From a virus (lineage: Duplodnaviria > Caudoviricetes): a DNA stretch of 64,000 bases. The notes under the pieces were generated by a model. That model made no database searches and was not told where the DNA came from. It was given only the letters and a program-made list of their open reading frames with translations. The stretch's first letter is position 1. Each line of letters starts with the position of its first letter. Of this stretch, positions 817 through 63,064 are shown in pieces. Location: IMG/VR virus record IMGVR_UViG_3300031088_000758. The stretch is one strand, 5' to 3'. The translations under genes were made by a program, and so were the position numbers.

Positions 817-864
817 AAATTACCTCTCGTATTTTGGAATACATAATATTTTATAATATCATTA

Positions 865-2262
865 TCACTTCAAAAATTTAATTAATTCGCTGACTGATGA
901 AATATATTCTACTCTTATGGTTAAGTCTTTTGGTAAGTGAAGATTTTTTTGAGAAGTTTTAGGAACAATTATTCTCTTAAAACCTAAACGTTGTGCTTCT
1001 CTAATTTTGTTTTCAACCATGAGACTTCCACGAACTTGACCTGTTAGGCTTAATTCTCCGATAAATGCAGTTGGTATAGCAATTGTTTTATCTTTTGCTG
1101 AAGAAATAATCGAAGCTGCGATTGATAAATCAGCCATAGGGTCTTTAACTTTAATGCCTGATACAGTGCTGACAAAAACATCATTGTCATATAATCGAGC
1201 ATTGCAGAATTTATCTAAAATAGCACATACAATTTGTCCACGATTGTAATCTACCCCGTTAAATTGCTTTCGAGGGTTAGGCATGTTAGAAGTTGTGACT
1301 AATGCTTGAACTTCAACAGGTATTTGTCGAACTCCTTCACTAATAAAGCTAGTAGCTGTTCCTGAAAGGTTTGCCGAATCTTCGTTATCTAAAAGAATTC
1401 CTGAAGGATCGGAAACTTCCATTAAACCCTTTTCTTGATGTTGAAATACTCCTACTTCAACAGTGTCACCAAAACGATTTTTTGTAGCACGCAAGAATTT
1501 AAGCGGCGTTTCATTATCAGATTCGAGATAAAGAATACAGTCAACAATATGAGCGATTTGGTTAGAACCTGCAAAATTAAGTTCGCCTTGTCCCTCTTTA
1601 GTGACTTGTGAGATAAGGAAAGTGATAATGTTGTTCTTCTTCGCAAATAATGTGAACACACTTGCTGCTTCTTTTGATTGAGATATAGAACCCATAGAGC
1701 CTGAAACTTCTGATGATGCCATGGTTTGTAAAGAATCTATAATAAGAAAATCAGGTTTCTCTTCTTCTACATGTCCTAAAACATTTTCAATGGTTGTTTC
1801 ATTGACTATTTTGATGTTTTCAGAGCTTACTTGCATTCTTTTTGCTCTTAGGGCTATCTGTTGTTCTGATTCTTCTCCTGAAATATACAGAACCTTTTTA
1901 CCCATATTAGCAAATTGATCTGAAATAGACATAGAAAGGGTAGATTTGCCAGACCCAGGTGACGCTGCAATCATCACTACTTCACCATTGACAAATCCGC
2001 CACCTAATACACGATCCAATTCTCCAATACCTGTAGCCGTTTTATGGATGGGTGTATTGTTCAATTCTTTTATTGTACTGGCTTTTTTGACAGGTCTCAC
2101 CGCACCTGATGTCTTTAATCCAGCGGAATTACCACCACTTGCGTTTTCTGAAACTTCTTCGAACTGCCCAAAGGCACCACAGTTTCTACATTTGCCAAAA
2201 GGTTCTTTATTATATTCGGCTCCGCAGCTTTTACATTTGAAAATAGTTTTGTTTTTATTCAT
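865..2262 (-). CDS. radA: DNA repair protein RadA/Sms
   Basis: N-terminal CxxC..CxxC zinc finger, ELDRVLGGG, Walker A SPGSGKS, IIDSLQT, KNRFG motif, Lon-like C-terminal domain (GELSLTGQVR); start placed at ATG 2262 (ORF track extends to 2295). Confidence 0.97.
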   Translation of the reverse strand: MNKNKTIFKCKSCGAEYNKEPFGKCRNCGAFGQFEEVSENASGGNSAGLKTSGAVRPVKKASTIKELNNTPIHKTATGIGELDRVLGGGFVNGEVVMIAASPGSGKSTLSMSISDQFANMGKKVLYISGEESEQQIALRAKRMQVSSENIKIVNETTIENVLGHVEEEKPDFLIIDSLQTMASSEVSGSMGSISQSKEAASVFTLFAKKNNIITFLISQVTKEGQGELNFAGSNQIAHIVDCILYLESDNETPLKFLRATKNRFGDTVEVGVFQHQEKGLMEVSDPSGILLDNEDSANLSGTATSFISEGVRQIPVEVQALVTTSNMPNPRKQFNGVDYNRGQIVCAILDKFCNARLYDNDVFVSTVSGIKVKDPMADLSIAASIISSAKDKTIAIPTAFIGELSLTGQVRGSLMVENKIREAQRLGFKRIIVPKTSQKNLHLPKDLTIRVEYISSVSELIKFLK

Positions 2263-2319
2263 GGTCCCCATCTTATCAAAGAGTATATACAACAATATTT
2301 GCTAATAGTTATTAATGAA

Positions 2320-2532
2320 TCAGTAGCCACGATACAAAGATGTAGCAACTTCTAAGGCTTTTTGTTTATCTGGTGATTCTTCAAGGATCTCTGCAAGCGG
2401 AACTAACGTATTTCTGATTGATGATCCAAAGTTTTCATAAAAAACTCCTCTGCTGCCGCTTCCTTCTTCTTTCATGAGGTTGATGATGTTATCAAATGTT
2501 TCTTGTTCTTCTGGTGTTAAGTCATTAATCAT
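2320..2532 (-). CDS. Small hypothetical protein
   Basis: Likely start MINDLTPEE at 2532; the longer ORF-track start runs into a hairpin. Confidence 0.55.
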   Translation of the reverse strand: MINDLTPEEQETFDNIINLMKEEGSGSRGVFYENFGSSIRNTLVPLAEILEESPDKQKALEVATSLYRGY

Positions 2533-2603
2533 GGATAGCCTTCTAATTTTGTTTCTGTGTTTTCTTTTGTAAGATTTTATCAATTTTTGAATAACAAAAG
2601 TAC

Positions 2604-2710: not shown

Positions 2711-2740
2711 ATTTAATATCAGAAAAATGTGTTTCACATC

Positions 2741-3310: not shown

Positions 3311-3389
3311 CACAACACTCCCGCTTAAACTTTTATATTTTCAGTATTCTTTTCTAAAAGCTTTCTTAAAATATCGTTGTTTCCTGAAT

Positions 3390-4803: not shown

Positions 4804-4849
4804 ATCTTATTTAATGTTACGTACATATTGGTGATTTTGATAAACAATT

Positions 4850-5140
4850 TTACATTTGATTTCCTAGTAATTCAAGTGTAAATTCCCAATTGAATTTATT
4901 ATCTGAAACTTCTAAATTGTCAACGTTTAAATCTCCACCAAAAAACAGTGGTTGAAGGATAGTAGCTACATGAGTTCTGCTAATAAAATTACCCGGTTCT
5001 TTTATCCACTCATCAAAAACATCTTTTTCTAATAATACTTGATTATCTTCTGTCAGAATAATATCATGCAAAAAATCGGAATTACCAGCAGCATTATAAA
5101 CACTTCTATAGTATTAAAGAACAATATTCTTGATCTCCAA
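4850..5140 (-). pseudogene. Probable small gene with in-frame premature stop
   Basis: AGGAG RBS, TTG at 5140, in-frame TAA at 5114-5116, then open through ORF 4850-5071. Confidence 0.35.
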
Positions 5141-6688: not shown

Positions 6689-9600
6689 TTATTTGAGTCT
6701 GACTATAAATTGGTCTCCAGGTTTCATTCCTGCTTTTCGATAGAATTGTTTCAAATCATTCCCATGATTATTATTCTCTTTTCTTAACACCATTTGGATT
6801 CTTGCGCCTAAGCCGCCCTCTTGGGTAGAAGCATAAGGAAATTCATCTCTTTCTAGACCTTTTTGTGTTGGAGTATTCTTAGTGGCATGATACCTATTTT
6901 TAGGTATTTTATCAGCTAATTCTTTTGTGAGGATCATTGAATCTCCTTTTCCTTGGGCTTTGAAATATTCAGCATGATTATCATAAACGCCATCATAAGA
7001 TCCTTTCTTTAGGTGAAATTCGCTCATTCCATTTTTGTTTATTATACCTATACTTCCGTTCTTAAACTGAATTTTTTCAACGTTTTTTGCCAAGAACCCT
7101 AACGATATATAACCATTGTCATTAAAATCAAGATTTTTCAATCTATGTTTAATAAATCCGTAAGCAGATTTGCCACCTTTGGCTAACAATCCGCCAGCCT
7201 TAACAAAACCTCCACCTGGTACAAACATTATACCAATTCCAGCTGCTGCACCAAGACCTGCATAAAGAAGCGAACAATTATCCACACTTCCCGGACTGAT
7301 ACGGTTCATCACAGAACCAGCAAGAGGAACCCCAATAGCCCCATCAATAACACCAGCTGCACCAGTAGCAAACTTATTCCATGCTGACAATCCAAGTGGA
7401 TCAATATTTGACAAAGGATTTCCCGAAGCATAACCATAAGCATCATTCGTCATTGCAAACAACGGATCAACACTCAGGAACGTTCCCGTAGAAGGCTCAT
7501 ACCAACGAGCGCGAAGATTATACAAGCCAGTATCAGAATCTTTATATTCACCCGCATAAGCAAAATTCGTGAAGAAATCTTTAACAGGTTTATCGTCAAT
7601 CGGAGCCTGATCTCCACCGCCGTCAGAAACAGCAGGAGTGTTTGAATCAGAATCGGTTTCAGGAGCATCAGAAACAGCCCCAGGAGCGTTTATATACTGT
7701 TCATCAAGTATTTGACCATACTCATCATACTCTCGCGTCAGAACAGCGTTTCCGTTGTTATCTGTAGCCAGAACAACACTATTACGCTCATCACCATGTA
7801 GATAATGAATTTCATCAGTATCTTTGTCAACTTGAGCAATAGGAGAACCGCGAATACCATAAATATATTCGTTCTTAGAATCTTCCAACAACAGCGGAAT
7901 ACTTGAAGAAACGTTATCCCACACATATTCATCAACTAATTGACCATCAACAGTTTTAGAATCTAATAAACCAGAATTCTCATATGAATAATCAATGTTT
8001 TTGTCATTGTTGTCATCAACCTGATCATCAATATTGACGTTCTTTAATGTTCCGTCAATATTCCACTCGTATGAACGATGAATATTTGAATCATTGTTAG
8101 TTAAACGATTACCTAACTCATCATATGAAACAGAATTTTCGCTACCCGCTATTTTCGATGATGTTAACCGATAATTTGACTCATAGTTAAATGTGTTTGA
8201 ACCAGATTTTGTCAAATTCTTGAATACATCATATGTTAAAGTAGTTTTTGCTTTTGTCGTGTTATTGAGAACAGTGGCAATAGTGTCTACTTTTGTATAT
8301 GTGTAAGTTTTGTCAATAGTTTTTGTGCCATTAAAGAAACTTTGTGAATTTAAAATGCGACTATCTTTGTCAAATGTTAAATTTCTCTGATACAAAGATT
8401 GACTAGAAGCGTTTTGAACATTAATGCTATTTAATCTGTTTAGCACATCAAATGAGTTGTTTTCAAGAATATTATTTCCATATTCTGTAGAAATATTATT
8501 GAAATTTTCGTCATAAGAATATTCAGCGATAGTTTCATTATTACTTGAAACATTTGTTAATTGATTTTCGCTATTATATGTATACTCTACTTCTTTTCCA
8601 GAAGGGTATGTTATTTTGTTGATTTCACCATAAGGCGTGTAAGAATATTGAACTTCTTTCCCAGGAGGTCCGCGAGAAGTGACATTTCCAATAGCATCAT
8701 AAGCATAATTAGTTATTTCACCGTCAGATGATTGAGACATAGTGATTTTTCCAGAATTATCGTATTCATAAATAACAGACTTATCATTGTTATACATTAT
8801 TTCAATAACATTACTCATAGAATCATAGGAATAATTCGTTGTTTTTGAATTATTAACTTTTGATTCTACAATGTTACCGTTTTCATCATACGTATAAGTT
8901 TTTAAACCATTGAATCTATCAAGATTACTGACAAGTATATTTTCTGAATTATATGTATAAACACTTAACAAGCCATTAGGATAAGTTGTGGTTATAAGAT
9001 TACCATTATCATCGTAACTATTTTTTGTTATATTCCCATCGGGATCAGTGATGGATAGCATATTTCCATTTTTATCATATTTGTAGCTATAAGAATTTCC
9101 TTGTGCTGTTCTTGAAGTTGTAATGTTATTAAGAACATCGTAACTATAGCTTACAGAACTGTTCACAGCGTCTTTGACAGACAAAACATTTCCAACTACG
9201 TCATAAGTATAAGTGGTTGTATTACCTTTTGCATCAGTTGTTGTGGCTAACAAACCATGTTTAGTATAAGTGTTTGTTGCTGTTGATCCATCATCGTAAA
9301 TGGTTTTTGTCAACATTCCCAAATTATTATATTCGTAATTAGTGATGCTTCCTTTTACGGAAGTTTCGGAAATAACTCTGTTATGAGAATCGTATGCGTA
9401 AGATGTTGTTCCATAAATTGTTTTTATAGTTAAAACATTGTCCATTAAATCATAGGTATATTCTATATTATTTCCATCAGTCCCAATTTCTTTAATAACT
9501 CTTCCTGCACCGTCATAAATAATTGTTTCTTCTGAACCATTTGGATATATAGTTTTAGTAGGAAGATTTGGATTATTGTTTAAGTATTGAATTTTTGTTA

Positions 9601-13039: not shown

Positions 13040-13126
13040 ATTCTTTTATGTTCCTTGTTATAGAGCTTGTAATTTAGCTCACAGATAAAAATAATATCAG
13101 AACATTTATTTAATATTATAAAAACA

Positions 13127-13173
13127 CAAAAGTGGTGGTACAACACCTATTGAACAGGCATTGTACCACCACT
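13127..13173 (-). terminator. Intrinsic terminator
   Basis: AGTGGTGGTACAA / TTGTACCACCACT inverted repeat after the RNA ligase gene. Confidence 0.75.
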
Positions 13174-13957: not shown

Positions 13958-13986
13958 AGTCTAACAAATTAATTAAAAATTGTCAA
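13958..13986 (-). promoter_or_regulatory. Housekeeping sigma70-type promoter
   Basis: TTGACA-17 bp-TAGACT with extended TG on the minus strand. Confidence 0.65.
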
Positions 13987-14857: not shown

Positions 14858-14886
14858 ATTATAGCATAATGTTTTCGAGTTATCAA
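14858..14886 (-). promoter_or_regulatory. Housekeeping sigma70-type promoter
   Basis: TTGATA-17 bp-TATAAT with extended TG. Confidence 0.75.
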
Positions 14887-16154: not shown

Positions 16155-16277
16155 AACAGCTCCTAAAAAGATTGCTTACTTACTAATATCTTCATTTTTG
16201 CTTACTTATAGAATATTATATCATTTATTTTCTTTAAAAGTGCAGCTAAACGCAAAACAATCAGTTAAACTCAAATA

Positions 16278-16351: not shown

Positions 16352-17104
16352 ATGGAAATAGAAACAATCTCACTAAAAAACCTCAGTGAAATCATGACAA
16401 ATTATCGTCCTGTCTATCCTTCACCTTACACTTGGGAATCAACAATAGCATACATGTTAAAAGAAGACACTGAACGAATTGTTGTTGAACAGCTTGTTGA
16501 AGAATTAAAAAATAGTGAACAAGGAACATTCAGAGAGCCAGTACGTCTAGATAAACAAGAAATAAGCCCTGATGAAATAAAAGAAGATGATTATTACACA
16601 GACATCTTGAATAATGGATATATTCGCACTGAGAATGACGGAAAGACATATTCATATACAATCGGTGACGGAACACATAGAATAGTTGCTGCTTACCTTT
16701 ACGGAGCCGAAGAAATTCTTACCACTAATAATTCTCTCAGTGAAGACATGTCATACTTCATAGTCACTTCTGTAAAATTTGCTGAAAAAGAATTAAATGA
16801 TGAAGAACAAGATCTTTTAGTGTCTTGTTCAAGATCATTAAAAATTTCCGAAAAGCTGTGGATTACAAGCAGTCTATCCACACAGGATATTAGAAGCACT
16901 TTTATTTATTGGGATATTTACTCACCCGAAATAGACTTAAACCTGATCACCAGCAAAGTTCAAAAAACAGTTCAGATTTTCATGCCGAATGTTGAATTTT
17001 CAGTAGATACTTTTCTTGAACCATGGGATGATGAGGAAGAAAAAGAAGAAGTTTGGGATAATTTTAACATTGAAAACAGCAGTGATGAACAACAAAAAGC
17101 TTGA
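16352..17104 (+). CDS. ParB/sulfiredoxin N-terminal-domain protein
   Basis: FREPV..IGDGTHRIVAAY resembles the ParB/Srx GxxR motif; no HTH evident. Confidence 0.65.
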   Translation: MEIETISLKNLSEIMTNYRPVYPSPYTWESTIAYMLKEDTERIVVEQLVEELKNSEQGTFREPVRLDKQEISPDEIKEDDYYTDILNNGYIRTENDGKTYSYTIGDGTHRIVAAYLYGAEEILTTNNSLSEDMSYFIVTSVKFAEKELNDEEQDLLVSCSRSLKISEKLWITSSLSTQDIRSTFIYWDIYSPEIDLNLITSKVQKTVQIFMPNVEFSVDTFLEPWDDEEEKEEVWDNFNIENSSDEQQKA

Positions 17105-17760: not shown

Positions 17761-17827
17761 AAAATTCTTACCTTCCAAAACATCTTCTATTATTCATGTT
17801 GTATACTTTATATATCTTATCACTAAC

Positions 17828-18673: not shown

Positions 18674-19169
18674 TTCTCTCCAACTTCATAAACTTAAACA
18701 TTCATAGACAAATATCTTATTCGTATGATTTTATCAAGGATAAAACATATTGAACTAACGTTATTACTGAACGTGCTAAAAGAGTATTATTAAAACAGAA
18801 ACATTTAGTGCTTAAAAACGATTCTACAACATACCTCAAATAACACTGATATACAGCCTTTTATTTAGGTTCTTTTTTGGCATTTTTCAAAGATTTTTTC
18901 AAAAACACCTTTTCTGATATGGGGATCAGTATAAAGTAGAAAATGCTGTACAAATCCTTTCTGACGTTTAACTCTTGTATTAAGTTTTTGATTAAATTTT
19001 GTTCTATCTATGTCGTAATCAACAGCAAGTTTTAAGAAGAACTGATTTTTATCTTCAAAATACAATGAGTTTGTATATTTTTCATTTTGATATGATATGT
19101 AATAAGAAAAATGTTTCAACTGTTTTTCTTGTTATTAAAGTGGATACAGAAACTGAAGCGAGGTTCATT

Positions 19170-23148: not shown

Positions 23149-23313
23149 TTAGAACTCTCTAACCCATTTAATCTTACCACTATCGTAGATTCTATACAAC
23201 CCATTTAAATCAGCTAATTCACGTTCAGTCAAACCTTCTTTATACCTTAAATTAGGGTTATTCTTAAAACGTTCTTTTCTCAATACACCGTTTTTGTTAA
23301 AATAGCTGTTTTT
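23149..23313 (-). pseudogene. Out-of-frame C-terminal remnant of the endonuclease gene
   Basis: -1 frame reads KNSYFNKNGVLRKERFKNNPNLRYKEGLTERELADLNGLYRIYDSGKIKWVREF*, resembling the TE.E..G..RIYD.G..KW terminus of phage Hef-like endonucleases. Confidence 0.65.
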
Positions 23314-24515: not shown

Positions 24516-24609
24516 ATTATCTCCTTTGGGTTAACTATCTTATTATATCAACAAAAAACCAAAGGTATTTGTTAAAAAAGAAAAAATTTTAAAACAAATT
24601 AAAGTTGAT

Positions 24610-26891: not shown

Positions 26892-26994
26892 TTCAGTGTA
26901 GCCCCTTTTCAAGCTTTATGTCTTTATTAATATCATTTATGCTTCATTTTATCAAACTTTTTTAAGTGTTGAGTTTTTAAAAGAATATATAAAT

Positions 26995-27637: not shown

Positions 27638-27955
27638 TTTTTTATCCTTTTCTCGAATTAACTTACATTATCTTTATCTACTCACTCAATGGCTTTGAGT
27701 ACAGCATAATCAATTTTAACAAATAAAATATCTAATATTCAGATTATTCTAATATGTTTTTTGATTATTAACATCTTACCAAAGAGTTTCAGAAAAATTA
27801 CTATTTTTTGAATTTTTTTTAAATATTTAATTATTGTTATCGTTCTGTTACAAACGATTAAGTACTACTTGCTTCTGTCAATCTAATTCCCGATTGTTTA
27901 TAAGATGCTTTGAAACATAAATATTTCTAAACATTTTAAACCTTCAATCTTTGGC

Positions 27956-29730: not shown

Positions 29731-29776
29731 AGGTTTGTATAACTGATTTTATCAAACTCTTTATAAAATTGATGGA

Positions 29777-30959: not shown

Positions 30960-31058
30960 GTTGGTTTAGATCATATAATATCTAAATTTTAACTCATTGT
31001 TTATGTAATTTTTATATATTATATGATTAATTGCCAGGTTTAGGTGATAGATTTCTCA

Positions 31059-34330: not shown

Positions 34331-34450
34331 AATTCTCCACAATCCAAAAATACATATACAATGTTCAGTTAACACTATTAAATATCGTTTTCAGAAAAAA
34401 GATAACAATATTGATGAAATTAAACAAATATATATTAGTATTGTCGAAAT

Positions 34451-36438: not shown

Positions 36439-36517
36439 TTTTGTTCCTTTGCCACATAATAAAATACTTAAAATTGTTCAATAAATATACATATATAAAT
36501 ATCAGCGCATATCTATT

Positions 36518-44764: not shown

Positions 44765-44912
44765 CTACAACTTCTCCAAAGTAATACCATATTGATTCAA
44801 GATTCATATGTTCTTTTATCTTTTATTTTCTAAAAATTTTTAATATTTTCCACATTAAATCATCAATATGAATATCTACTACGCTTCTTTAAATGTATTG
44901 AAAAAATAATTA

Positions 44913-45467: not shown

Positions 45468-45569
45468 TAAATCCTCTTTCTTAGTTAAAAACTACAAGCA
45501 TAATTATAATATCATTTATACAACTGTATTTCTAAGCAAGATAAAAAGAAAACGCACACTTTTAGAGTC

Positions 45570-46530: not shown

Positions 46531-46570
46531 TTTATTAATGTTAAGAAATTACAATAATATCTTATCAATA

Positions 46571-46621: not shown

Positions 46622-46921
46622 TCATTCAGATTCTGCTTCTCCAGCAACAACATCTCTGAAGTGCCTGAAAATACGAACTTTTACAGCATTACGCTCAGGA
46701 ACAGTAATTTCTTCACCAGAAATAGGTGAGATTGCTTTACGCTCTGAACGAACAACAGGTGTGAATGCTACGAATCCGCTAATCTTCACTTCTACTTTGC
46801 CTACAACTGACTCTTCAACAGTCTCTTGGAACGCTGTTAAGAAACGATCAGTTGCCGCTTTGCTCTCGCCTGTTTTTTCTGCAATTTTTGCTACTAACTC
46901 GGGTCTATTCATAACTGACAT
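46622..46921 (-). CDS. hup: HU family DNA-binding protein
   Basis: MNRPELVAKIAEKTG..VKISGFVAF..RSERKAISPISGEEITVP. Confidence 0.92.
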   Translation of the reverse strand: MSVMNRPELVAKIAEKTGESKAATDRFLTAFQETVEESVVGKVEVKISGFVAFTPVVRSERKAISPISGEEITVPERNAVKVRIFRHFRDVVAGEAESE

Positions 46922-47117
46922 ACTTTATCTCCAATCTAATTTAACTTACATTTACTCTAAAAATAGTCCGATAAAATCCTGACTTTTTATTAATTTTAAT
47001 ATCAGAACAATCTTTTTAAGAAAAATATCTAAAAAATAATCTAACTATTTGAAGCCTATATTATTATAACATTTTATTAATGAAAAACACAGAATAAGTT
47101 GAGCATTCTGTAATTTA

Positions 47118-47417
47118 TTATTTTCTGTCTAAGAAACTTTCTACATTCAAATTATTTTCTTCATCCTCGTAGAACAAAGATGAAGCTTCGCCTTCTTCTA
47201 GTACTTCTGTTGGTTCTTCTTCAACTTCAGAAGTATCTAGCCCTAACTCCGACAAAGAAGGAAGAATTTCGCTTTTTTGTTCATCACGAGAAGCTTTTAT
47301 CTTTAGAGCAAGGATAATAAGCAGAAAAACTGCCAACAATCCAATTACTCCAGTAAAACCATAAATGATTAGTTGACGTTCTTGAATCGTCATAGCGTTC
47401 AATAGTAAATTGATCAT
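47118..47417 (-). CDS. Small bitopic membrane protein
   Basis: One TM, acidic tail; ATGA overlap with upstream gene. Confidence 0.7.
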   Translation of the reverse strand: MINLLLNAMTIQERQLIIYGFTGVIGLLAVFLLIILALKIKASRDEQKSEILPSLSELGLDTSEVEEEPTEVLEEGEASSLFYEDEENNLNVESFLDRK

Positions 47418-48517
47418 CTTTTTGCTATCCTTTTTCCTTCAAATAATGAAATGTATCTAGTTGGCTTAATTATTTTATTGTGTGACTCAATGTTTTTTAT
47501 TGTTTCATATATATCGAAACTGCCTGATGTTGAACCTTCGTAGTTCTTTAAAAACTCATAAAATGGACCATTAACATCTCGCATTAGATCTTTCCACTTA
47601 GCCGAAATTTGCTTGTATTCAGTGTTCTCCAAGCCTTCTATTATAGCGTTTATTGCTTCGGATATATTGTTCATTTTTAAATCAGATAACAAAACTGCTA
47701 TTGCTTCGGGTGTAAAATTATAAGCAGAAACAAAAGTTCCAATCAAAGTCTCTTCAAAAATAGGAGTGCTTGTCTCTGAAAGTTTGATTTCAGCACTATA
47801 ATCTTCTAATGGGTCCAGTAGATTAGTATGGTTAAGGTTCTGTTCAAAGTTTTCTTGTTCTTCAATAATACTGATAGTCATGTTTTGATTAACCGCATAA
47901 GGCTTATCTTCTTTTTCAAGTTTTCCGTTCATAGTCTTTAAATCGGCTTTACCTGAAATAAAGAAATCAAGAACTTCTTCATTTGTAGCATAACGACCAA
48001 TTGATTCGGAAAGTTTTTTACGCACAGCGGAAATTTTTTTGTATCTTTGAAAGCGCGAAGGAGCAATCCCAAATGGTGCTTCTAGAACATTCAATTCTTT
48101 TTTCGCATAAGTAACTATCCATTGGAACAAATAATTAGTAGAAGACTTGTTCAACTTATCTACGTCAAAATGACGGAGACCTTTAATCATTCCGTTTATA
48201 CCAGCATAGTATAGTATGTCAAATAAGTCCTCTCTACCATTCAAATGAGAACCTTTTATTATCTTATTTAATTCTCTTGTAATAAGAGGCCCTGCTAAGG
48301 AAGAAATTTTTTCTACTGCTAAATCTTTTAATCGTGCTTCAGTTTCCAGAAGATTTTTCTCAGCAGGTGATAAGTTTTCTGGCTCTTCTAAAAGTCTTTC
48401 AGCAGCTTCATCCCCACGTTGAAAGAAAGGAACATAATAGCGCAAAGCTTCTACTGTGATTCTGTCATTCGTATTCTTTCGAATGATCTTTGTAGGATTG
48501 ACTAAAGTTTCACTCAT
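47414..48517 (-). CDS. Divergent sigma70-family factor
   Basis: Region-2-like DILYYAGINGMIKGLRHFD..STNYLFQWI; region-3-like LSESIGRYATNEEV. Confidence 0.65.
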   Translation of the reverse strand: MSETLVNPTKIIRKNTNDRITVEALRYYVPFFQRGDEAAERLLEEPENLSPAEKNLLETEARLKDLAVEKISSLAGPLITRELNKIIKGSHLNGREDLFDILYYAGINGMIKGLRHFDVDKLNKSSTNYLFQWIVTYAKKELNVLEAPFGIAPSRFQRYKKISAVRKKLSESIGRYATNEEVLDFFISGKADLKTMNGKLEKEDKPYAVNQNMTISIIEEQENFEQNLNHTNLLDPLEDYSAEIKLSETSTPIFEETLIGTFVSAYNFTPEAIAVLLSDLKMNNISEAINAIIEGLENTEYKQISAKWKDLMRDVNGPFYEFLKNYEGSTSGSFDIYETIKNIESHNKIIKPTRYISLFEGKRIAKR

Positions 48518-50904: not shown

Positions 50905-50964
50905 TCTCCTATCAAGATTAAACTAAGATTATTTATACATATACTAATATCTTTTAACTACATT

Positions 50965-53247: not shown

Positions 53248-53439
53248 CTAACCCTCTTGCTTCTTGACACAGATACATGTTTCAACTTTTATTTTAACAA
53301 TTAATGAGTTAATTTATTCAAAATAGTCTGACTTAAAATCCAGATATTAAAATCGTTCTAATGAATTCTAAGATGAATTATTAACGTAAACAATCCCAGG
53401 ATACGTAAATAGGGTTTTTCGAAAAAACCTTTGAATATA

Positions 53440-53496
53440 AGAATTCTATGCCTAAAAAAGAGCCAATTTTAAAGGGTTTTTTAGGCATAGAATTCT
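53440..53496. terminator. Long hairpin / terminator
   Basis: 20-bp inverted repeat AGAATTCTATGCCTAAAAAA / TTTTTTAGGCATAGAATTCT. Confidence 0.7.
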
Positions 53497-53535
53497 AAGG
53501 CATTTTAAAGAATATATAATTAATCGTTTTTGCTT

Positions 53536-54905: not shown

Positions 54906-56189
54906 TCACTCTACGCCAAAATTTGCGCCTAATTCTTGAATGAAAACTTCTGAAACTGTATCTAACTGAGCCATATTAATTTCAGCAACATCAATCTGAG
55001 ACAGAATACTGAACGCATCTTCATATAAACCTGTTGAACATGCAGTTTCAACAACTGCTCGACTTATTTTATGTGCCAATGCTATATTTGTTGACGTAGA
55101 TAATTCTTCAACTGTCAGCTCTGGTGCTTTTTCATCGCTGTTTTCATCCCATGTCAAACTTGTAGGCTTGCGAGACTTGCTCCATACTTTATGTTTTTCT
55201 TCCAAATCGTTGAAATGATACTGGTCCATCTCCATAGCCTGAGCTAATTCAATGTTCGTAAAGTTTTTTTCATCTCCATGCTTTTCTTTTAGTCTCTCCA
55301 CAGCTTTTGAACGTTGGCGCTGGAATTGACTTAAATCTTTGCCCAAGTGTGCAGGTGGAAGGTCATAAGGCCAACGTTTTAGAACAGAATTTAAATAACC
55401 ACTGAAAGGAACCGCTGTTGATTCATCAAATTTTTCAATAGCTGCTAGAACCCACAGAGTAATTTGTGATTCTTGATCTTCTGGATCAGGCAAGAATATT
55501 TGAATAGTTTCCATCTCTTTTTTCACTAATGTTCTAGCGAAAGATTTATAGAACATCACTAAATCATTAGCAAACTGATCACTAAAGTCTACTATTTCTC
55601 GTCTTTTAGCTTCAGCCCTTGAGTAAGTTTTCCTATTTAACCCTTTTAGCATGTCTTTGTATTCGTCTTCTTGTTCAAGGGTTTTAAGAGTATCTTCAAT
55701 GATTTTTTTGACAGTAGCTGCATGTAGGCAGTAAGCTTTGTATCTTCCAGGTTCGAACTCTCGGATTTTTGCTATTCCTCGTAAAGCTTCGCTTACTCTA
55801 GTGGCTATTTTACTATTAGCAGAAAAAGATACAATTCCTATTTCACGAAGTGGAGCATCCATGAATCCTTCGGCTTCTGTCATATCATCCCAAATTCGAG
55901 GGGGAAAGATAGAATCTATTAGTTGGACACCAATTTCTAGATTATGATCTTTATACCATTTTTGAATAGATTCATGTGGGAAACGATACGATTTAGCTCC
56001 TGTTTCGGATTGGATTAAAGAACCATCAGCTAAATGTTTTTCAATCCAATCATTAATCTCTTCTTCTGAAACTTTAGCTATTTTTCGCCATTTCGTTAAA
56101 GAATACCACATTCCATCTGAAACTACTGCACCAATACGAAAGTCTACAGGTTGGTGTTTTAACGTTGTCTTAGTAAAAAGTGCGCTCAT
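54906..56189 (-). CDS. Divergent sigma70-family protein with long N-terminal extension
   Basis: WVLAAIEKFDESTAVPFSGYL (region 2), FTNIELAQAMEMD (region 3), PTSLTWD. Confidence 0.65.
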   Translation of the reverse strand: MSALFTKTTLKHQPVDFRIGAVVSDGMWYSLTKWRKIAKVSEEEINDWIEKHLADGSLIQSETGAKSYRFPHESIQKWYKDHNLEIGVQLIDSIFPPRIWDDMTEAEGFMDAPLREIGIVSFSANSKIATRVSEALRGIAKIREFEPGRYKAYCLHAATVKKIIEDTLKTLEQEDEYKDMLKGLNRKTYSRAEAKRREIVDFSDQFANDLVMFYKSFARTLVKKEMETIQIFLPDPEDQESQITLWVLAAIEKFDESTAVPFSGYLNSVLKRWPYDLPPAHLGKDLSQFQRQRSKAVERLKEKHGDEKNFTNIELAQAMEMDQYHFNDLEEKHKVWSKSRKPTSLTWDENSDEKAPELTVEELSTSTNIALAHKISRAVVETACSTGLYEDAFSILSQIDVAEINMAQLDTVSEVFIQELGANFGVE

Positions 56190-56569
56190 TTATTTACTCC
56201 ATCTTTGTTGCTAACTTTAACAGTTGAACCGAGATTGTGTTTTCTGGACTCAATGATGTTATCCAATTCTTCGCTATCCACCTGTGTAAAGTGTGGTAGC
56301 ATTTCACTTGTTTTTTCAAATAATTTATGTAATTTATTAAAAAATGTTTCATTATCTTTGTCATTAGACACAAGAAGTGGTTGCTGTATCTTATATATTA
56401 TTTCAAACCCATTATCATTTTCGCTTTTTACCAAACGATTACTCTCATTCTTGAATAATTCATACATAGAAGTTTCTACAATTTTTTGAGATAGCTCAGT
56501 AGAACTATCGTTTGAAATATGAAAAGCAACAAAAATAGATAAATCATTGTGAGTACTGTTTTGTTTCAT
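56186..56569 (-). CDS. Hypothetical protein
   Basis: 127 aa, ATGA overlap with downstream sigma-like gene. Confidence 0.7.
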   Translation of the reverse strand: MKQNSTHNDLSIFVAFHISNDSSTELSQKIVETSMYELFKNESNRLVKSENDNGFEIIYKIQQPLLVSNDKDNETFFNKLHKLFEKTSEMLPHFTQVDSEELDNIIESRKHNLGSTVKVSNKDGVNK

Positions 56570-56636
56570 ATAGGCTCCGTCTATTCATTGTTAATTCTTA
56601 GTGGTCTAAACAAATTATAACAATAAAAATATAAAA

Positions 56637-56693: not shown

Positions 56694-57593
56694 TCAAGAA
56701 GATATAAAATCTTCAAAACTTAAATCAAGCTCTTTCATGTCTCTATTTATCTCTGATAATGCTAAAGTTAATATTCGTTTATACTTAGAAGCTGAAAGGT
56801 TATACTTTTCTTTGACTTTCTTAGGAGTGGTAGGTTCATATCCTGGAATGTTGTCCATAGAAAATTGTGAGAGAACTACTTCTCTTTCAATGTCTTTCAT
56901 TTCGTTTAATTTATCTACTAATATTTGGAAAGTTGCGTCCATAACAACTACTGACTCTGCTGAATCAGCTGTATCATCAAGAACAAGTTCAATTAGTTCT
57001 TTATTAGATTCTTCATCTACTGTTCGGTTTAAGCTGGCTGGTATAGAAGCTGCTCCATTGATGAAGAACATGTCATCACGAGATAGTTTAAGCTCTTCCA
57101 TGATTCTTTCGTCAATGTCAAGCTTGTTCATGCCTTCTTCTTTGTACTGATTGCGAAGTCTTGAGATTTTTGTATAATCAGTTACTCGGTTTTCAGGAAG
57201 TTTTACTAATCGACCAGTTTTATTTGTCCATCGTGTAATACTTTGGAAAATCCAATAAGTTGCGACGGTGGAAAGTTTGTTGCCACGTTCAGGTGCGTAT
57301 CTCATAATGGCTGTTACTAGACCTGCCATTCCTTCTTGGACTAAATCTTCCATAGCTGGTGCACTAGGGTATTTAGACTTAAAATTACGCGCTATGTTCC
57401 ACACTAAGCCTGTGTTAGACTCTACTAGTTTTGCTACTGCTTCTTCGCCATGAAAAATTTGTTCTTTGTAGCTTCTTAATTCTCTTTTTGTAAGACCAGG
57501 TTCTTTAATTTGTTCTTTTGCTTTGACCATAGATTGAACAATTGAACCTAAACGAAGTTCTTCTTCTTTTGACAAATGTTGCGCTTTACTCAT
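56694..57593 (-). CDS. RNA polymerase sigma70-family factor (RpoD/SigB-like)
   Basis: LSKEEELRL (1.2), LVESNTGLVWNIA, EDLVQEGMAGL, RGNKLSTVATYWIFQSI, RLVKLP, ASLN, region 4 helix. Confidence 0.92.
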   Translation of the reverse strand: MSKAQHLSKEEELRLGSIVQSMVKAKEQIKEPGLTKRELRSYKEQIFHGEEAVAKLVESNTGLVWNIARNFKSKYPSAPAMEDLVQEGMAGLVTAIMRYAPERGNKLSTVATYWIFQSITRWTNKTGRLVKLPENRVTDYTKISRLRNQYKEEGMNKLDIDERIMEELKLSRDDMFFINGAASIPASLNRTVDEESNKELIELVLDDTADSAESVVVMDATFQILVDKLNEMKDIEREVVLSQFSMDNIPGYEPTTPKKVKEKYNLSASKYKRILTLALSEINRDMKELDLSFEDFISS

Positions 57594-57929
57594 CTCTTAC
57601 CACCTTTTTTATCTACTTACTCAGAATATTTTTTGTGCAGCTTTTCTTCTAACTTTAGCCACACCATATTTATTTCACTTTTAGGAGAGATCAAGCCAAC
57701 ATATTAAGAAAATTAGCTTTATCTACTCATATAAATATCAGTAAAACCTCAAAATCTGAAATCTTAAAAATACTTATTTTTAAAAGAGAACAAGGGACAT
57801 TATATTATTAATACTTTTAAAAAGTCAAATTCAAATGGGGCTTTATTCAAATATTTACCATTTCGTTATAATGATGATAAAATAAAAGAATGACGAATAT
57901 TACATTATGGTTTATAGTAATTTAATAAA

Positions 57930-58386: not shown

Positions 58387-58794
58387 TCAATCATCAGTTC
58401 GATGTTGCATCGTATTTATACAAATATCATTAACTAATATTTCTAGGTTTCGTTTAGAGATTTCATCTACAATTTTAAAAAGCAAAGCTTCTTCTAAGTT
58501 TTCTTCAGTGCTTTCAAAATCTTGAAGAAAAGAAATACGAAGTGAGATCTTTTTCAATCCATCTTTGTCAGTGTAAGGTACAGCATTTAATTCATAAAAT
58601 TCACTACTGGATATTTTAGTAAATGTGTCTGAGAAGCTCAACGATATACGCTCTATAATAGGCATCAAAAAACTATTCGCTTGACTATCATCTTCTACAA
58701 TTCGACTGCTTGCCATTTTTGATAATTCTTTTTTATCACTATCTGACCCAACATTATGTAGCTCATTAACAATTGCGATTAAGCTTTTCGACAT
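58387..58794 (-). CDS. Hypothetical protein
   Basis: 135-aa ORF in operon. Confidence 0.7.
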   Translation of the reverse strand: MSKSLIAIVNELHNVGSDSDKKELSKMASSRIVEDDSQANSFLMPIIERISLSFSDTFTKISSSEFYELNAVPYTDKDGLKKISLRISFLQDFESTEENLEEALLFKIVDEISKRNLEILVNDICINTMQHRTDD

Positions 58795-58815: not shown

Positions 58816-59049
58816 TCATCCGTTGACGTAAAGGTTAAAACCTAAGTAGCTTACATAAACAATTCCAGCGACAATAATAATTGCACCGAGAACACCCAGG
58901 ATAGTTAAAGTTGTATTAACTGTCCTTAAAGAAACAGAGCTAAACTTGCTTTTCTTCTTTTTTGGCTTAGAAACACGCTTAATATCCTCAGCACGACGTT
59001 CTTCAGGCTCTTCTAATCTTCTATTTTTGCCTAATTCTTCAAATAACAT
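58816..59049 (-). CDS. Small C-terminally anchored membrane protein
   Basis: 77 aa, one TM, GGAGGG RBS. Confidence 0.7.
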   Translation of the reverse strand: MLFEELGKNRRLEEPEERRAEDIKRVSKPKKKKSKFSSVSLRTVNTTLTILGVLGAIIIVAGIVYVSYLGFNLYVNG

Positions 59050-59062
59050 TATTAACCCCTCC

Positions 59063-59680
59063 TTATTCTATATCAGTTCTTGTTAAAACACTGCCATAAA
59101 TATGTTCTTTATCAATAATAAAAGCCTCACCAACATTGCAATCACCAGAAATACAAACAACAACATACTGGTTCTTCAAGAAAGGGTCTTCACTATTAAT
59201 AGGTGATTTGCCTTCACTATCAGCGGGAAAAGGATATCCTATCGGTTCACCATTAACAGTTAGTATTTCCGGTGAAGCCCATGTCATCTCTCCATAAGGA
59301 CCAGCAACAACTTCAACTACAGCAGCATTACTACGAGGAGTAAAAGATTGTTTTAATCTGTCAAGAACATTTGTTCCCTGTGCTTCTTCTGTATCTACTA
59401 AAATCTGTGCACCCGGAGGAAGAATGCCACCCTCATAAGTAACATTTTTAATGGGGACTAATCCTGAACCCGATGTAGTGGGAACAATTCTCAACCAAGT
59501 AGCAGCAAAGCATAGATAAAGAATGATAATAGCTAATCCGGCAAAAGATAGAATCTGAAAAATACGACGCGAAATTAAGCGCCCATACATACCCTTAGTG
59601 ATACGAACTTCGGGTTCCTTGGGCAACGTTTCTTCTTCGAGTTCTGCTTGATTATTAGACTTCTTTAAGAATGAGGGCAT
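59063..59680 (-). CDS. Signal peptidase I (S26)-like fold protein, apparently lacking the catalytic Lys
   Basis: TM then LPPGAQILV..VVEVVAGPYG..LTVNGEP..QYVVVC..FIIDKEHIYGSV parallels S26 boxes. Confidence 0.5.
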   Translation of the reverse strand: MPSFLKKSNNQAELEEETLPKEPEVRITKGMYGRLISRRIFQILSFAGLAIIILYLCFAATWLRIVPTTSGSGLVPIKNVTYEGGILPPGAQILVDTEEAQGTNVLDRLKQSFTPRSNAAVVEVVAGPYGEMTWASPEILTVNGEPIGYPFPADSEGKSPINSEDPFLKNQYVVVCISGDCNVGEAFIIDKEHIYGSVLTRTDIE

Positions 59681-59764
59681 TTCAAACCTTCCACAATACC
59701 AATAAAATATCTGACATAATTAATATCAGGAGGATAAAATATTCGCTTTATAAGTTATATATTC

Positions 59765-60316
59765 TCAAATAGAGATAAGAATAGTGTAGCCAATAAACAT
59801 TGCTACCATGACACCTAAGAATATTGATTTCACCTTATTCGTCTTTGCCCAATTTACAACTCTGTCAAAAGTATTATGGATTTCTTCTTGATCCACTTTT
59901 TTCTTCTTAGCTGAAGGAATTCCAAGATAAGATTTTTCTACTGTCTTCAAAGTGTCGGCAATACTCTTCGTGAAATTCTGAGTAAGAACAAAATCAGCGG
60001 ATTGACCATCACTAGAGCTTATATGAAGGACAGGAGGGTCATTCCTCAAAGACATCCTGTTTCTAGGCTTTCCCTTTTCGTCATAAAAATTGAGGATTTC
60101 GCAAGAGACTACATTATCAGATTGCTTAAAAAGACTTAATACATCTTTTTCAACGATAACGCTATCATCACCTTTTAAAAACTGCTCATCATCATCAAAA
60201 TAATCTTTTTGCGTAATGTTTTCCTCATACGGTTCTTCATAATCATATATTTCCTCAGGTTCTTCCTGAGACGAAGGATTAGTTTGCGTGTTCATTTTGT
60301 CTCTTATCTTTCTCAT
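59765..60316 (-). CDS. C-terminally anchored membrane protein
   Basis: 183 aa, C-terminal TM. Confidence 0.7.
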   Translation of the reverse strand: MRKIRDKMNTQTNPSSQEEPEEIYDYEEPYEENITQKDYFDDDEQFLKGDDSVIVEKDVLSLFKQSDNVVSCEILNFYDEKGKPRNRMSLRNDPPVLHISSSDGQSADFVLTQNFTKSIADTLKTVEKSYLGIPSAKKKKVDQEEIHNTFDRVVNWAKTNKVKSIFLGVMVAMFIGYTILISI

Positions 60317-61155
60317 TCAGTAGGTTCTATATCTTGGTCTTGATTCGGTGGAGTAATTTTATCAATTTCTTGTAAATCAAATTGAGTCTCTGAGAAAGCA
60401 TCAGACCTAGGATTGTCCCAAGTAGCCAATAAAAACTCATTTTCTAGATCACGGATATCGTATAATTTCCATTCATTATCTGAGTCTATTACAAAAACTA
60501 AAGTAGCAGTTGTATTGTTAAAGTTTTTAGAGCGAACAGAATAAGAACGCTCAGCTCCAAATTCACTTCCTACTTCTACAAACATTGTTTCATTACTGTT
60601 AAAAGAAACTCTAACGCTAGCTGATCGTAATTGCGTACCATCAATATCTACATAACTGCCTTTCTCATACGCAGAGGCTTCAACAGATTCAATAGAAAAA
60701 CTATTCCTGAACAAAGTTTCAAAATCGTTAGACCAAGAATTTACTTCGGTCTCATTATAATCAATTGGAGAGCCTTCCATAATATAATCGTCAATACTGT
60801 TATAAGCTGTAGAACGTGAAGTAAAGTAGTAATCTGCTGAGTTAACATCAATTTCCAGTAAAGTTGCTAACTCATCAATATTTTCAGGAGTAATTACATC
60901 TTTTTTTACTCCAAATTCTCCCGTTTGATTAATAATCGTCTCAGAAATTCCTTCTAATTTAACCTGCTCTGATTCAGAAATTTCTACGGTGCTTGAAACT
61001 ATTGGTTGGTTAGTTTCTTCATTGTTCGTATTTCCTGGAAAAACTACGAAAAAGAGAATCAAGAAAATAGCAACTGCAACAACTGGCAAAACAACCACAA
61101 CTATTGCTTTCTTGTTTAAAGGAGCTTCTTCGTTAGTGTTTTCTGATTGTGTCAT
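60313..61155 (-). CDS. Bitopic membrane protein
   Basis: N-terminal TM, acidic extracytoplasmic domain. Confidence 0.75.
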   Translation of the reverse strand: MTQSENTNEEAPLNKKAIVVVVLPVVAVAIFLILFFVVFPGNTNNEETNQPIVSSTVEISESEQVKLEGISETIINQTGEFGVKKDVITPENIDELATLLEIDVNSADYYFTSRSTAYNSIDDYIMEGSPIDYNETEVNSWSNDFETLFRNSFSIESVEASAYEKGSYVDIDGTQLRSASVRVSFNSNETMFVEVGSEFGAERSYSVRSKNFNNTTATLVFVIDSDNEWKLYDIRDLENEFLLATWDNPRSDAFSETQFDLQEIDKITPPNQDQDIEPTE

Positions 61156-61276
61156 AATAAATCTTCCGCATTTAGATGTGTTATTTACATAAAAATATAT
61201 TAATAATATGCTTTATACTAATATCTGTTTATAGTGTACTTATGGGAATTTTATTAGAAATACCATGAGTTTTTAA

Positions 61277-62989
61277 TCATCCACCAACATAGCTAAACCC
61301 ATAATAACCTCTACCACTTTTATCAGTCATAGCATCACTAATATAACTAGCACGCGGTTGAAGAGCTGCTACACGGCTGTTTCCACGTTGACTATATGAA
61401 GCATGCATGATCATGTCTTGTCCATTTATCGTTCCCAGATACATTACTGTATGTCCACCACCATCATGCCCCGGTTTAGTAATCCATACATCACCTGGCT
61501 TTGCTTCTGACAAATTACTGTATTTTTTCCATTTATTCGGATTACTCTCAGCATATTTTCTTTGAGTAACAATGTTTCCCCAAGGATAGTTAGGGTCCAT
61601 AGTGTTTATAACAACTGTTGCTACTGCTCGGTCGCAAGAGGCATAAAGACTAGGCATTCCGTCTTTACTGCCTATTTGTTGTGCTTTATCTTTTGCTGTT
61701 ACATACTCAGGCTTAGCTTTAGATGTTCCCATCTGATCTCCACCAGTTCTTGATTCATCCACAGTAGGGTAAGCAATTTGTATAGCAAGATTTACTGAAT
61801 CACTTGTATCCACAGCACCAGACATAGAACCAGAGGTCAAGCAACTACCACCTGAAGATGAAGATGAAAAAGCTGCGCCAGAGCCAGGTGAATATGCTGA
61901 ATTAAAAGAATTAGCATAATTAATTCTCTGATTCATCATAGGTTGTCCAGCTCTTGTGAACCCTTTCTCCCAAGCCTCTGTGTAATGTTCAATACTTTCA
62001 CCTGTATCTCCAAATCCTTTTTGAAGAACTAAATCACGATTATATGTTGCTCCAGGATAAGGCGCTGTACCTTCAAACTCCATTTTTAAAAATTCAAGCT
62101 GAACACCTAAATCAGACCAAGGCTTACCTTTTGATTCAGCATATTGTGCTAGATAGAATCTTCTTTCGGAATCCCATTGGATAAGACCAATAGCTCTTCC
62201 TCCATTACCTTTACCAAGGTTCATAACCTCTGAATTTGAAGAACTTGAAGATATTGAACTACTTTGACTTGCCGCAGGATTAACAGTAGACTCTTGCCAC
62301 ATGTTTCCAATAAGACCCGCTGCTTGTTCACGGTTCATTGGTTTGTTTCCTAATGAGGTAAAGTTAGTTGTCATAGCCCAATCCGCAATGGTGCTAGCGT
62401 TAGCCATAGAATCAGCTGAGGTAGGAACGTTAATTGATAATGAGCCTCCTGATCCTGTCTGCCCGTACATTCCTATACCATAGCATCCATCAGCATTATC
62501 CGTTTTACCGAAAACTTGAACACCAGCTATAATTCCTATTACTAATACAATGATAACAGCAATAACCGCAATAACGATCCATGTAATAGGGTCTACTAAA
62601 AGTGCCACAGCAGCTGAAGCCCACTGAGATATAGAAGCAACTGCACCTTTAACCATAATTGCAGTACTACCAAGTTTTGTAACTTTCTCTGTTGCTTCAC
62701 CTACTTTTTCAGCAGCCTCAGGGTTTGCCTCTCCAATTGTTTTTTGAGCAGTATCTTTCGCAGTCCCAGCAATAGCATCTGTTGCTGCACCTTTAAGATT
62801 AGTGCCGTTTTTTTGAAGGGCATTTTTGGAATTTTTTAAAGCATCTTGACCTATTTCCCCAGCTTTTTGAGCAACACCTTTTTGTGGAGAGCCATTATCA
62901 GATAAGTTTTCACCATTATCTAAATTTTGCTGTCCACTGTTTTTGTCATTTGGATCAGACCCATCTAAAGGTATCTCAAATTTAGCCAT
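61277..62989 (-). CDS. Membrane-anchored conjugative cell-wall hydrolase (phage-tail-lysozyme domain plus NlpC/P60-CHAP-like domain)
   Basis: AAGLIGNMWQES..GLIQWD..QLEFLKME..RINYA; SCDRAV..PGDVW..GHTVMY. Confidence 0.85.
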   Translation of the reverse strand: MAKFEIPLDGSDPNDKNSGQQNLDNGENLSDNGSPQKGVAQKAGEIGQDALKNSKNALQKNGTNLKGAATDAIAGTAKDTAQKTIGEANPEAAEKVGEATEKVTKLGSTAIMVKGAVASISQWASAAVALLVDPITWIVIAVIAVIIVLVIGIIAGVQVFGKTDNADGCYGIGMYGQTGSGGSLSINVPTSADSMANASTIADWAMTTNFTSLGNKPMNREQAAGLIGNMWQESTVNPAASQSSSISSSSSNSEVMNLGKGNGGRAIGLIQWDSERRFYLAQYAESKGKPWSDLGVQLEFLKMEFEGTAPYPGATYNRDLVLQKGFGDTGESIEHYTEAWEKGFTRAGQPMMNQRINYANSFNSAYSPGSGAAFSSSSSGGSCLTSGSMSGAVDTSDSVNLAIQIAYPTVDESRTGGDQMGTSKAKPEYVTAKDKAQQIGSKDGMPSLYASCDRAVATVVINTMDPNYPWGNIVTQRKYAESNPNKWKKYSNLSEAKPGDVWITKPGHDGGGHTVMYLGTINGQDMIMHASYSQRGNSRVAALQPRASYISDAMTDKSGRGYYGFSYVGG

Positions 62990-63064
62990 TCATCAAATCC
63001 TCTAAAGAAATTAGTTCATTAAATTTGTTCTACTTTTAATAAACATTACACTTACTAATATCAC

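Follow-up and report, generated by a model that had tools for sequence, protein, structure and literature searches.

A six-base sequence, GATATT, recurs in front of most groups of genes in the DNA analysed here, a stretch of 64,000 nucleotides (the window) from IMG/VR record IMGVR_UViG_3300031088_000758, a viral sequence assigned to the Caudoviricetes. Our analysis suggests, with a probability of about three in four, that GATATT is the core of a promoter class of the element from which the window derives, and a sigma factor encoded by this element is its probable reader. The case, which is built on sequence, draws on the exactness and strand specificity of the hexamer, on its recurrence in related elements and on the sigma family that these elements carry.

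Results

An exact hexamer between the genes of the window

Of the 53 larger open reading frames (ORFs) in the window, nearly all are on the minus strand, Shine-Dalgarno-like sites stand in front of most genes, and 5.7 kb are left between genes. In this intergenic DNA, GATATT occurs 24 times on the coding (minus) strand, where 6.0-6.2 copies are expected from an order-2 Markov model that already includes the motif (z 6.8-7.4; Poisson P 2.5e-8). It is the most over-represented of all hexamers between the genes, and only 2 copies are antisense. Per kb, there are 4.2 copies in intergenic and 0.29 in coding DNA. Counting both strands of the entire window gives 62 copies where 62.0 are expected, so that the signal resides in the placement of the hexamer. 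All 19 sites listed in an initial annotation of this DNA, given as AATATC on the plus strand, exist and lie between genes, and its estimate of about one chance copy per kb was right; the enrichment against a background model, which it had left to be checked, is evident from these counts. Its further remark that GATATTAGT recurs four times holds at 16185, 50946, 61220 and 63057. Sites at 3370, 47024 and 59706, plus a doubtful one at 5060, were absent from its list (Table 1).

The hexamer stands out for its exactness. Of 18 one-mismatch variants tested between the genes of the window none is enriched (GATATA 4 vs 6.3 expected, GATAAT 4 vs 5.8, TATATT 15 vs 13.5, CATATT 3 vs 3.2); the GNTATT variants are at expectation, and those that break the A at position 2 or the T at position 6 (GCTATT, GATATA, GATATC, GATATG) are not enriched either. 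The two GATATA copies at 24544 and 17811, initially annotated as variants of the motif, are better read as the extended -10 boxes TGATATAAT and TGATAAGAT. The flanks carry little information: A/C then A/T 5' of the G, and A/T after the final T; the base directly preceding the G is T in 11 of the 24 sites.

If the hexamer spans positions -12 to -7, every copy presents A-11 and T-7, the two bases that are flipped out in -10 elements of the sigma-70 type. The T of the housekeeping consensus at -12 is absent, the G being invariant and TATATT standing at expectation. No -35 box accompanies the hexamer: across 62 sites none of the columns from -50 to -7 carries information, and between -42 and -16 no 4- or 5-mer is enriched, the best 4-mer (P 1.5e-3 over 256 tests) failing correction for multiple testing. 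This agrees with the initial annotation, which had seen no shared -35. Nor is there a -10-like box at a fixed distance downstream or upstream; TATG follows 3-5 nt downstream at 9 of the 62 sites, a weak and borderline preference. Since a fixed second box is found on neither side, GATATT itself appears to be the core signal, and the lack of a downstream -10-like box makes it unlikely that GATATT is an activator box lying upstream, like that of MotA in T4. Moreover, several sites directly follow terminators or, in junctions of 36-55 bp, lie within 0-10 nt of the stop codon before them, a spacing so tight that it leaves no room for another promoter.

A shifted extended -10 (TGnTATAAT in the register G-n-TAT) was considered as a candidate and rejected: GNTATT is unenriched, the A after the G is obligatory, and the would-be -7 T is at background in the window (10/24) and in relatives (11/39). 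That the motif is not simply the TGn of an extended -10 had been noted initially and is upheld.

Inside the genes of the window, GATATT is scarce, with 17 sense copies against 43.8 and 19 antisense copies against 26.1 expected from codon shuffles. Among 60 hexamers of the same composition, it ranks second for depletion inside genes. As avoidance of internal promoters this is suggestive only. Two in-gene copies may be described in their own right. One, at 58981, falls in a conserved 77-aa gene (58816-59049) that an ordinary ORF list limited to 80 aa and above passes over and that has a counterpart of 77-83 aa in all relatives, between the 205-aa and 135-aa genes. The other, at 58423-58428, lies at the 3' end of the 135-aa gene, as does a copy in the orthologous gene of the related loci L001, L002, L003, L005 and L007; in most relatives it stands 46-74 nt ahead of the next start, it is part of the sequence for the conserved peptide LDILVNDI, and it could reflect either protein constraint or an internal promoter.

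Conservation in related elements

The comparison drew on ten syntenic loci around relatives of the 299-aa sigma gene described below, whose GC contents range from 30 to 51%, and on 9 kb of the window's own contig just past the window end (L055). The source samples are ERZ27247443 for the element itself and SRR32316215, SRR28883718, SRR25400044, ERZ23499648 and ERZ22670824 for relatives. In the first eight (11.3 kb of intergenic DNA, GC 30-45%), GATATT is again the top hexamer, with 39 copies vs 11.5 expected and 2 antisense. TGATAT and TTGATA come next in rank, which indicates that relatives favour T/C-T before the G; T directly precedes it in 24 of the 39 sites. The locus L057 (51% GC, 12 kb) holds 4 sense copies, all within its 617 bp of spacer and 37-74 nt before starts, where 0.1-0.2 are expected (P 4e-5; 0 of 2000 shuffles reach four), and its genes (11.3 kb) contain no sense copy and 1 antisense copy.

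The hexamer is kept at particular junctions: at that of the 205-aa gene in 9/9 loci, of the ATPase gene in 7/9, of the large TrbL-like gene in 5/5, of the lysozyme-like gene in 4/6 and of the sigma gene in about 5/9. When the 205-aa junction is aligned across loci, GATATT supplies the sole invariant columns. The distance to the start codon, measured for 61 sites, has its mode at 30-46 nt (22 of the 61).

At the junction of the large TrbL-like gene, the GATATT copy lies inside a terminator-like hairpin behind a PhoH/PIN gene (L055:5266-5399; L001, ~480-540; L002, ~430-480). The outer stem varies by compensating changes (GACCTGATTGATA... vs AGCGCGTTTGATA...), and TTGATA/TATCAA is kept. As promoter and terminator would overlap here, the junction may act as a switch.

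A second putative promoter class

A second box, TGnTAnnAT, is also enriched between the genes, with 19 copies in the window against 4.9 expected and 3 antisense, and 28 against 7.3 in relatives. In five of the 19, the box shares bases with a GATATT copy (TGATATTAT or a similar sequence), and the junctions of the window that are without GATATT mostly carry this box. In relatives, six such boxes stand 6-9 nt before an ATG that has no Shine-Dalgarno site, the layout of a leaderless mRNA, which argues that they are true -10 elements. The canonical promoters initially annotated at 13958, 14858 and 16278 are present as well, such two-box promoters preceding the RNA-ligase gene, the histidine-phosphatase gene and the genes of the plus strand; taken over the whole window, two-box matches of the sigma-70 type are not above shuffles. 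The two classes are largely found at different junctions. The junctions at 56614 and 53291, both long and conserved, carry the second box; at that of 56614, GATATT is found in 0/9 of the first nine loci, with one copy in L057. They stand in tandem at 26946/26929, 18728/18711, 16215/16185 and 47063/47024. The stretches 26929-26954 and 18711-18736 are an identical tandem, TTGATAAAAT + 11 nt + GATATT; dual promoters at a constant distance would make a unit readable in either programme.

Does this division follow gene function? The initial annotation had proposed a private programme for transfer genes, with canonical promoters for accessory genes. The strand-specific motif does coexist with a separate canonical promoter class. 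However, GATATT also stands in front of the Rhs-DNase toxin, SSB, HU, GNAT and sigma genes, and conserved core genes are found on TGnTAnnAT, namely the Rad50-like gene, the operon of the 427-aa protein and an operon with an FtsK-like piece; thus, the split is not one of transfer versus accessory genes. The toxin gene (6689-13039, minus strand) encodes a 2116-aa Rhs-repeat protein with a NucA/NucB DNase domain at its C-terminus, and its GATATT site lies directly behind a strong terminator, ~32 nt after the 20-bp stem at 13131-13173. This Rhs-NucA/NucB polymorphic toxin would be a member of the element's private programme.

The spacer before the Rad50-like gene (53248-53535 in the window; also in L001-L005, L007 and L008) is 225-288 bp long and conserved in layout, holding a hairpin of the type CCTAAAAA...TTTTTAGG, CTTAAAA(T/C) boxes as repeats and, in addition, a TGnTAnAAT box. 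Four of the relatives have this last box 6-9 nt ahead of an ATG that lacks a Shine-Dalgarno site, the leaderless layout; in the window, it is followed by a 43-nt leader in which such a site is present.

Candidate sigma factors

Three sigma factors had been claimed for the element; of these, one is clear (299 aa), one is recognised by its fold (367 aa) and one is doubtful (427 aa). The gene of the 299-aa protein is carried on an element contig of 727,572 bp. Its product matches Pfam Sigma70_r2 above the cut-off (1e-11) and PHROG 351 (1e-37), and its residues 38-283 align with solved SigA chains (E 3e-22), covering regions 1.2 through 4.2. It falls far under the cut-offs of every NCBIfam equivalog, and its 39 close relatives (41-80% identity) are set apart by a wide gap from ordinary sigma factors at ~30%, which together make it a family of its own. 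No relative was found in viral_contigs, and a search of 185,579 species genomes gave just ordinary sigma factors of at most 37% identity.

The family invariantly departs from SigA in region 2.3/2.4 (Y430V, W433Y, R436F) and further at H455N and E458T, and the -35 recognition helix RERIRQ is replaced by SKYKRI. Residues are numbered as in E. coli, and the positions concerned contact the -12 region, the TG of the extended -10 (H455, E458) and the -35 box. The altered contacts fit a sigma factor that would no longer read TGn or TTGACA.

Upstream of the sigma gene, a canonical site precedes the GATATT copy (Table 1). A similar canonical site is found 155-205 nt upstream of the sigma gene in L001 (12/12 match), L002, L003 and L006, and the tandem of canonical site and GATATT, or a close form of it, in 5 loci. 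The leader of the gene (window 56694-57640 and relatives) is conserved in its last ~40 nt before the start (AGTAAGTAG..AAAAAGGnGGTAAGAG-ATG), and GATATTAGTAAGT is also found at 16185 and 63057. In the spacers of relatives, GTAAGT (12 vs 3.4 expected) and GGTAAG (11 vs 2.6) are enriched, with 0 antisense copies. The conserved leader may be a translational control element.

The 367-aa protein is matched by a sigma profile hidden Markov model (E 4e-7 among the window ORFs) and by hhalign (E 5e-5), and has no Pfam match. A search with its structural model, of predicted local distance difference test (pLDDT) 70, gave 57 Foldseek matches in the PDB at E <= 0.001, those listed all being sigma chains. 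The best is SigA (E 6e-6 over ~320 columns), and TM-scores are low (0.29-0.35). The modelled fold, which spans sigma domains 2 to 4, confirms the protein as a member of the sigma family. For the 427-aa protein, region 2 is matched weakly (hhalign E 8e-5, probability 61%; NCBIfam SigBFG E 0.014), its model gave no sigma fold match, and the sigma-like part is below pLDDT 50. Its N-terminal ~190 aa have weak fold matches of the winged-helix or Lrp/AsnC-like kind (E about 0.01), and every relative has the protein, at 52-84% identity. Judged from gene layout, the 299-aa protein would be the most likely reader of GATATT, followed by the 427-aa and then the 367-aa protein.

Gene content and positions

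Among the products of the window are a TrbL/VirB6-M23 fusion, an intein-bearing VirB11/CpaF-like ATPase, a Rad50-like ATPase, a RadA-like protein, SSB, two HU-like proteins, a phage-tail-lysozyme-like protein, the Rhs toxin with its DNase tip and the sigma-70 region-2 protein. DNA near-identical to the window was not found in plasmid and phage collections, scanning the window gave no Rfam family and no tRNA, and no relative of the element was found in the 185,579 species genomes. Just two genes lie on the plus strand, 18999-20336 and 16352-17104, neither with GATATT on its own strand. The former encodes a protein of the baeRF (release-factor-like) family; in the relative L006, a PCRF/RF-1 gene adjoins the sigma gene on the opposite strand.

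Table 1. Positions of GATATT sites, second-class and canonical promoter-like boxes and selected genes in the window
Position	Strand	Feature	Context
63057..63062	-	GATATT	67 nt before lysozyme-like gene 61277-62989; just after hairpin; junction positive in 4/6 loci
61220..61225	-	GATATT	64 nt before 280-aa gene 60313-61155
59706..59727	-	GATATT x2 (59722, 59706)	41 and 25 nt before 205-aa gene 59063-59680
57734..57739	-	GATATT	140 nt before 299-aa sigma gene
50946..50951	-	GATATT	41 nt before VirB11/CpaF-like ATPase gene 48514-50904; 7/9 loci
46998..47029	-	GATATT x2 (47024, 46998)	102 and 76 nt before HU gene 46622-46921
47063-47071	-	TGTTATAAT	upstream of paired GATATT copies at HU gene
46556..46561	-	GATATT	25 nt before 156-aa gene
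45508..45513	-	GATATT (TGATATTAT)	40 nt before GNAT-like gene
44871..44876	-	GATATT	106 nt before 1427-aa gene, followed by TrbL/VirB6-M23 gene
36498..36503	-	GATATT	59 nt before 481-aa gene
34381..34386	-	GATATT	5 nt before called GTG start of 33233-34375; start call doubtful
30977..30982	-	GATATT	75 nt before 374-aa gene
27727..27732	-	GATATT	89 nt before SSB gene; flanks TGGTAAGAT (27773) and TGTTAAAAT (27713)
26929..26954	-	TGATAAAAT + 11 nt + GATATT tandem	before 268-aa gene
18711..18736	-	TGATAAAAT + 11 nt + GATATT tandem	before 281-aa gene
16185..16223	-	TGATATAAT (16215) + GATATT (16185)	before 143-aa gene
13093..13098	-	GATATT (TGATATTAT)	53 nt before Rhs-DNase toxin gene
5060..5065	-	GATATT, doubtful	probably within 33-codon ORF having its own Shine-Dalgarno site
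3370..3375	-	GATATT	56 nt before 190-aa gene
2715..2720	-	GATATT	92 nt before 100-aa gene and RadA-like gene
855..860	-	GATATT (TGATATTAT)	38 nt before 271-aa gene
57799..57828	-	TTGACT-18-TATAAT	~205 nt before 299-aa sigma gene, in tandem with GATATT
56614..56622	-	second class, TGTTATAAT	before operon 56186-56569 + 427-aa sigma-like gene
53291..53299	-	second class, TGTTAAAAT	before Rad50-like gene; GATATT in 0/9 loci
29746..29754	-	second class, TGATAAAAT	before 556-aa gene
24542..24550	-	second class, TGATATAAT	before 411-aa gene
23171..23179	-	second class, TGGTAAGAT	before 433-aa gene
17814..17822	-	second class, TGATAAGAT	before 17113-17778; overlaps GATATA at 17811
14858..14886	-	canonical, TTGATA-17-TGCTATAAT	before histidine-phosphatase gene
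13958..13986	-	canonical, TTGACA-17-(TG)TTAGACT	before RNA-ligase gene
	+	canonical-type, TTGACT-17-(TG)TTAGACT	before 16352-17104
58816-59049	-	77-aa gene	hydrophobic C-terminal stretch; unlisted ORF
56694..57593	-	sigma-70 family protein, 299 aa	regions 1.2-4.2; candidate GATATT reader
54906..56189	-	weakly sigma region-2-like protein, 427 aa	sigma identity doubtful
47414..48517	-	divergent sigma-family protein, 367 aa	predicted to share GATATT-headed transcript with ATPase

Discussion

How might transcription of these elements be organised? In the scenario that we favour, GATATT would serve, from -12 to -7, as the -10-type core of an element-specific promoter class that does without a -35 box, and would be recognised by core RNA polymerase together with an element-encoded factor of the sigma-70 family. 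Transcription would start a few bases past the hexamer and yield leaders of ~25-40 nt that bear the Shine-Dalgarno site. The TGnTAnnAT or TTGACA/TATAAT class would be read by the housekeeping sigma factor of the host and drive early or independent units, such as the Rad50-like gene, the operon of the 427-aa protein and the accessory genes. The layout at the sigma gene, with a canonical site followed by GATATT, suggests that host RNA polymerase would switch on the 299-aa sigma factor, which would then amplify itself via GATATT.

Several observations weigh against this scenario. The 299-aa protein, assigned to the hexamer from gene layout, retains Q437, T440 and R441, in sigma-70 the readers of T at -12, so that the G at this position is not accounted for by these residues. 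Six bases amount to ~12 bits, too few for specificity in a 727-kb element, and a further determinant must exist, be it DNA context, an activator or the low copy number in genes. The depletion in genes is itself ambiguous, as in relatives (53 sense copies vs 113.8 expected, 23 antisense vs 46) both strands are halved (0.47 and 0.50). Finally, neither in the window nor in 11 loci does GATATT stand 6-9 nt before a start without a Shine-Dalgarno site.

The most serious alternative, which we nevertheless consider unlikely, is that GATATT is a -10 element read by a host sigma factor, be it a relaxed housekeeping or an alternative one, and that the sigma factors of the element serve other promoters. 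Such a factor would meet A-11 and T-7 intact; four sites of the window are TGATATTAT, which also fits TGnTAnnAT; relatives favour T before the G (24/39), and one of them offers TTGATA-18-GATATT. That no relative of the element was found in the 185,579 species genomes is likewise compatible with it. However, a housekeeping sigma factor should accept TATATT and GATAAT, and neither is enriched beside the exact hexamer. A distinct canonical class exists in the same elements at different junctions, the motif is unchanged in elements of 30-51% GC whose hosts probably differ, and the elements always bring a sigma family of their own, in which residues that contact DNA are altered.

Less probable still is a role of GATATT as the site of a regulator, either an operator or an activator box such as T4 has in its middle promoters, or as an RNA signal in the 5' leader. 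A strand-specific motif, usually in single copy and ~40 nt from the start, would suit a leader element, the N-terminal part of the 427-aa protein may be a winged-helix, Lrp-like domain (a weak match, E about 0.01), and two HU-like proteins are encoded nearby. Yet an accompanying promoter is hard to place, as no -10-like box lies at a fixed spacing on either side and the sites abutting terminators or stops in junctions of 36-55 bp leave no room for one; no Rfam family is matched, and the hexamer has the A-11/T-7 pattern of a -10 element itself. That the pattern arises by chance from the composition of AT-rich spacers, to which only the whole-window count at expectation (62 vs 62.0) would lend colour, is refuted by the sense-to-antisense ratios (24:2 for the window, 39:2 for relatives; z about 7-8), by the recurrence at the same junctions and by the 4 intergenic copies vs 0.1-0.2 at 51% GC in L057.

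Returning to GATATT as a promoter core read by an element sigma factor, a broader and more tentative proposal, for which we would not claim even odds, is that this family of giant, uncultured plasmid- or phage-like elements runs a phage-style cascade of several sigma factors for an apparatus resembling a type IV secretion or conjugation system. Host-type promoters would lead to the new sigma factor, this would read bare GATATT promoters and amplify itself, and these promoters would lead to a sigma factor of a third stage. The proposal combines a new sigma-70 subfamily without the usual -35 and extended -10 contacts with a further divergent sigma factor expressed from a GATATT promoter. A sigma cascade for a secretion or transfer apparatus instead of virion genes would be unusual.

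If GATATT is indeed a private promoter, it provides a transcription-unit map for very large, uncultured elements composed mostly of genes of unknown function, and assigns these genes to two or more regulatory classes. It would also bring together two partners whose match can be tested, a new subfamily of sigma factors and a promoter of six bases that has no -35 box; to our knowledge, how the sigma-70 family achieves specificity with such a short signal has until now been addressed mainly in T4. In metagenomes, the hexamer could serve as a simple marker to find and orient the genes of this family. Private sigma-directed promoters of mobile elements are already known; what would be new here is the GATATT variant.

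Among known systems, extended -10 promoters (TGnTATAAT) resemble the proposed GATATT promoters in being strong, centred on the -10 region and able to dispense with a -35 box, but GATATT has an obligatory A after the G, and T before it in just 11 of 24 sites. Alternative sigma factors of Bacillus subtilis read -10 elements of the CATA type (sigma-E/K) or the GCCGATAT type (sigma-D/sigma-28), paired with defined -35 elements. The likeness lies in a G or C followed by ATA and in readers of the sigma-70 family; unlike in these promoters, the bases before the G are T/A/C rather than GCC, and CATATT is unenriched (3 vs 3.2). The late promoters of T4 (TATAAATA) have gp55 as their reader, together with gp33 and the sliding clamp. 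Like them, the GATATT sites consist of a very exact -10-type element alone, with no -35, in what would be the private programme of a mobile element; the sequence is different, with 6 rather than 8 fixed bases, and unlike the truncated gp55, the 299-aa sigma factor aligns with SigA through region 4.2.

The closest parallel is found in Bacillus phage SPO1, whose late promoter consensus CGTTAGA-N17-19-GATATT is read by host core RNA polymerase and requires the sigma factor gp34 and the accessory protein gp33 (PMC3601020). When the literature was searched for GATATT in connection with sigma factors or promoters, this consensus was the only relevant result; no paper on this element family or its promoters was found in the library searched. 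The element is not recognisable as an SPO1-like phage and carries type IV secretion-like genes, and its sites are without CGTTAGA or another -35 box. Homology of the element sigma factors to gp34 was considered and rejected (BLASTP E 0.12; hhalign E 0.16 and 0.23), the three sigma-like proteins being not detectably related to gp34 beyond a generic region 2 (E 0.12-0.23). Nonetheless, both systems encode their own sigma factor and HU-like proteins (TF1 in SPO1), both have, in the element probably, a private promoter class beside host-type promoters, and the late -10 hexamer of SPO1 is identical to the GATATT of the element.

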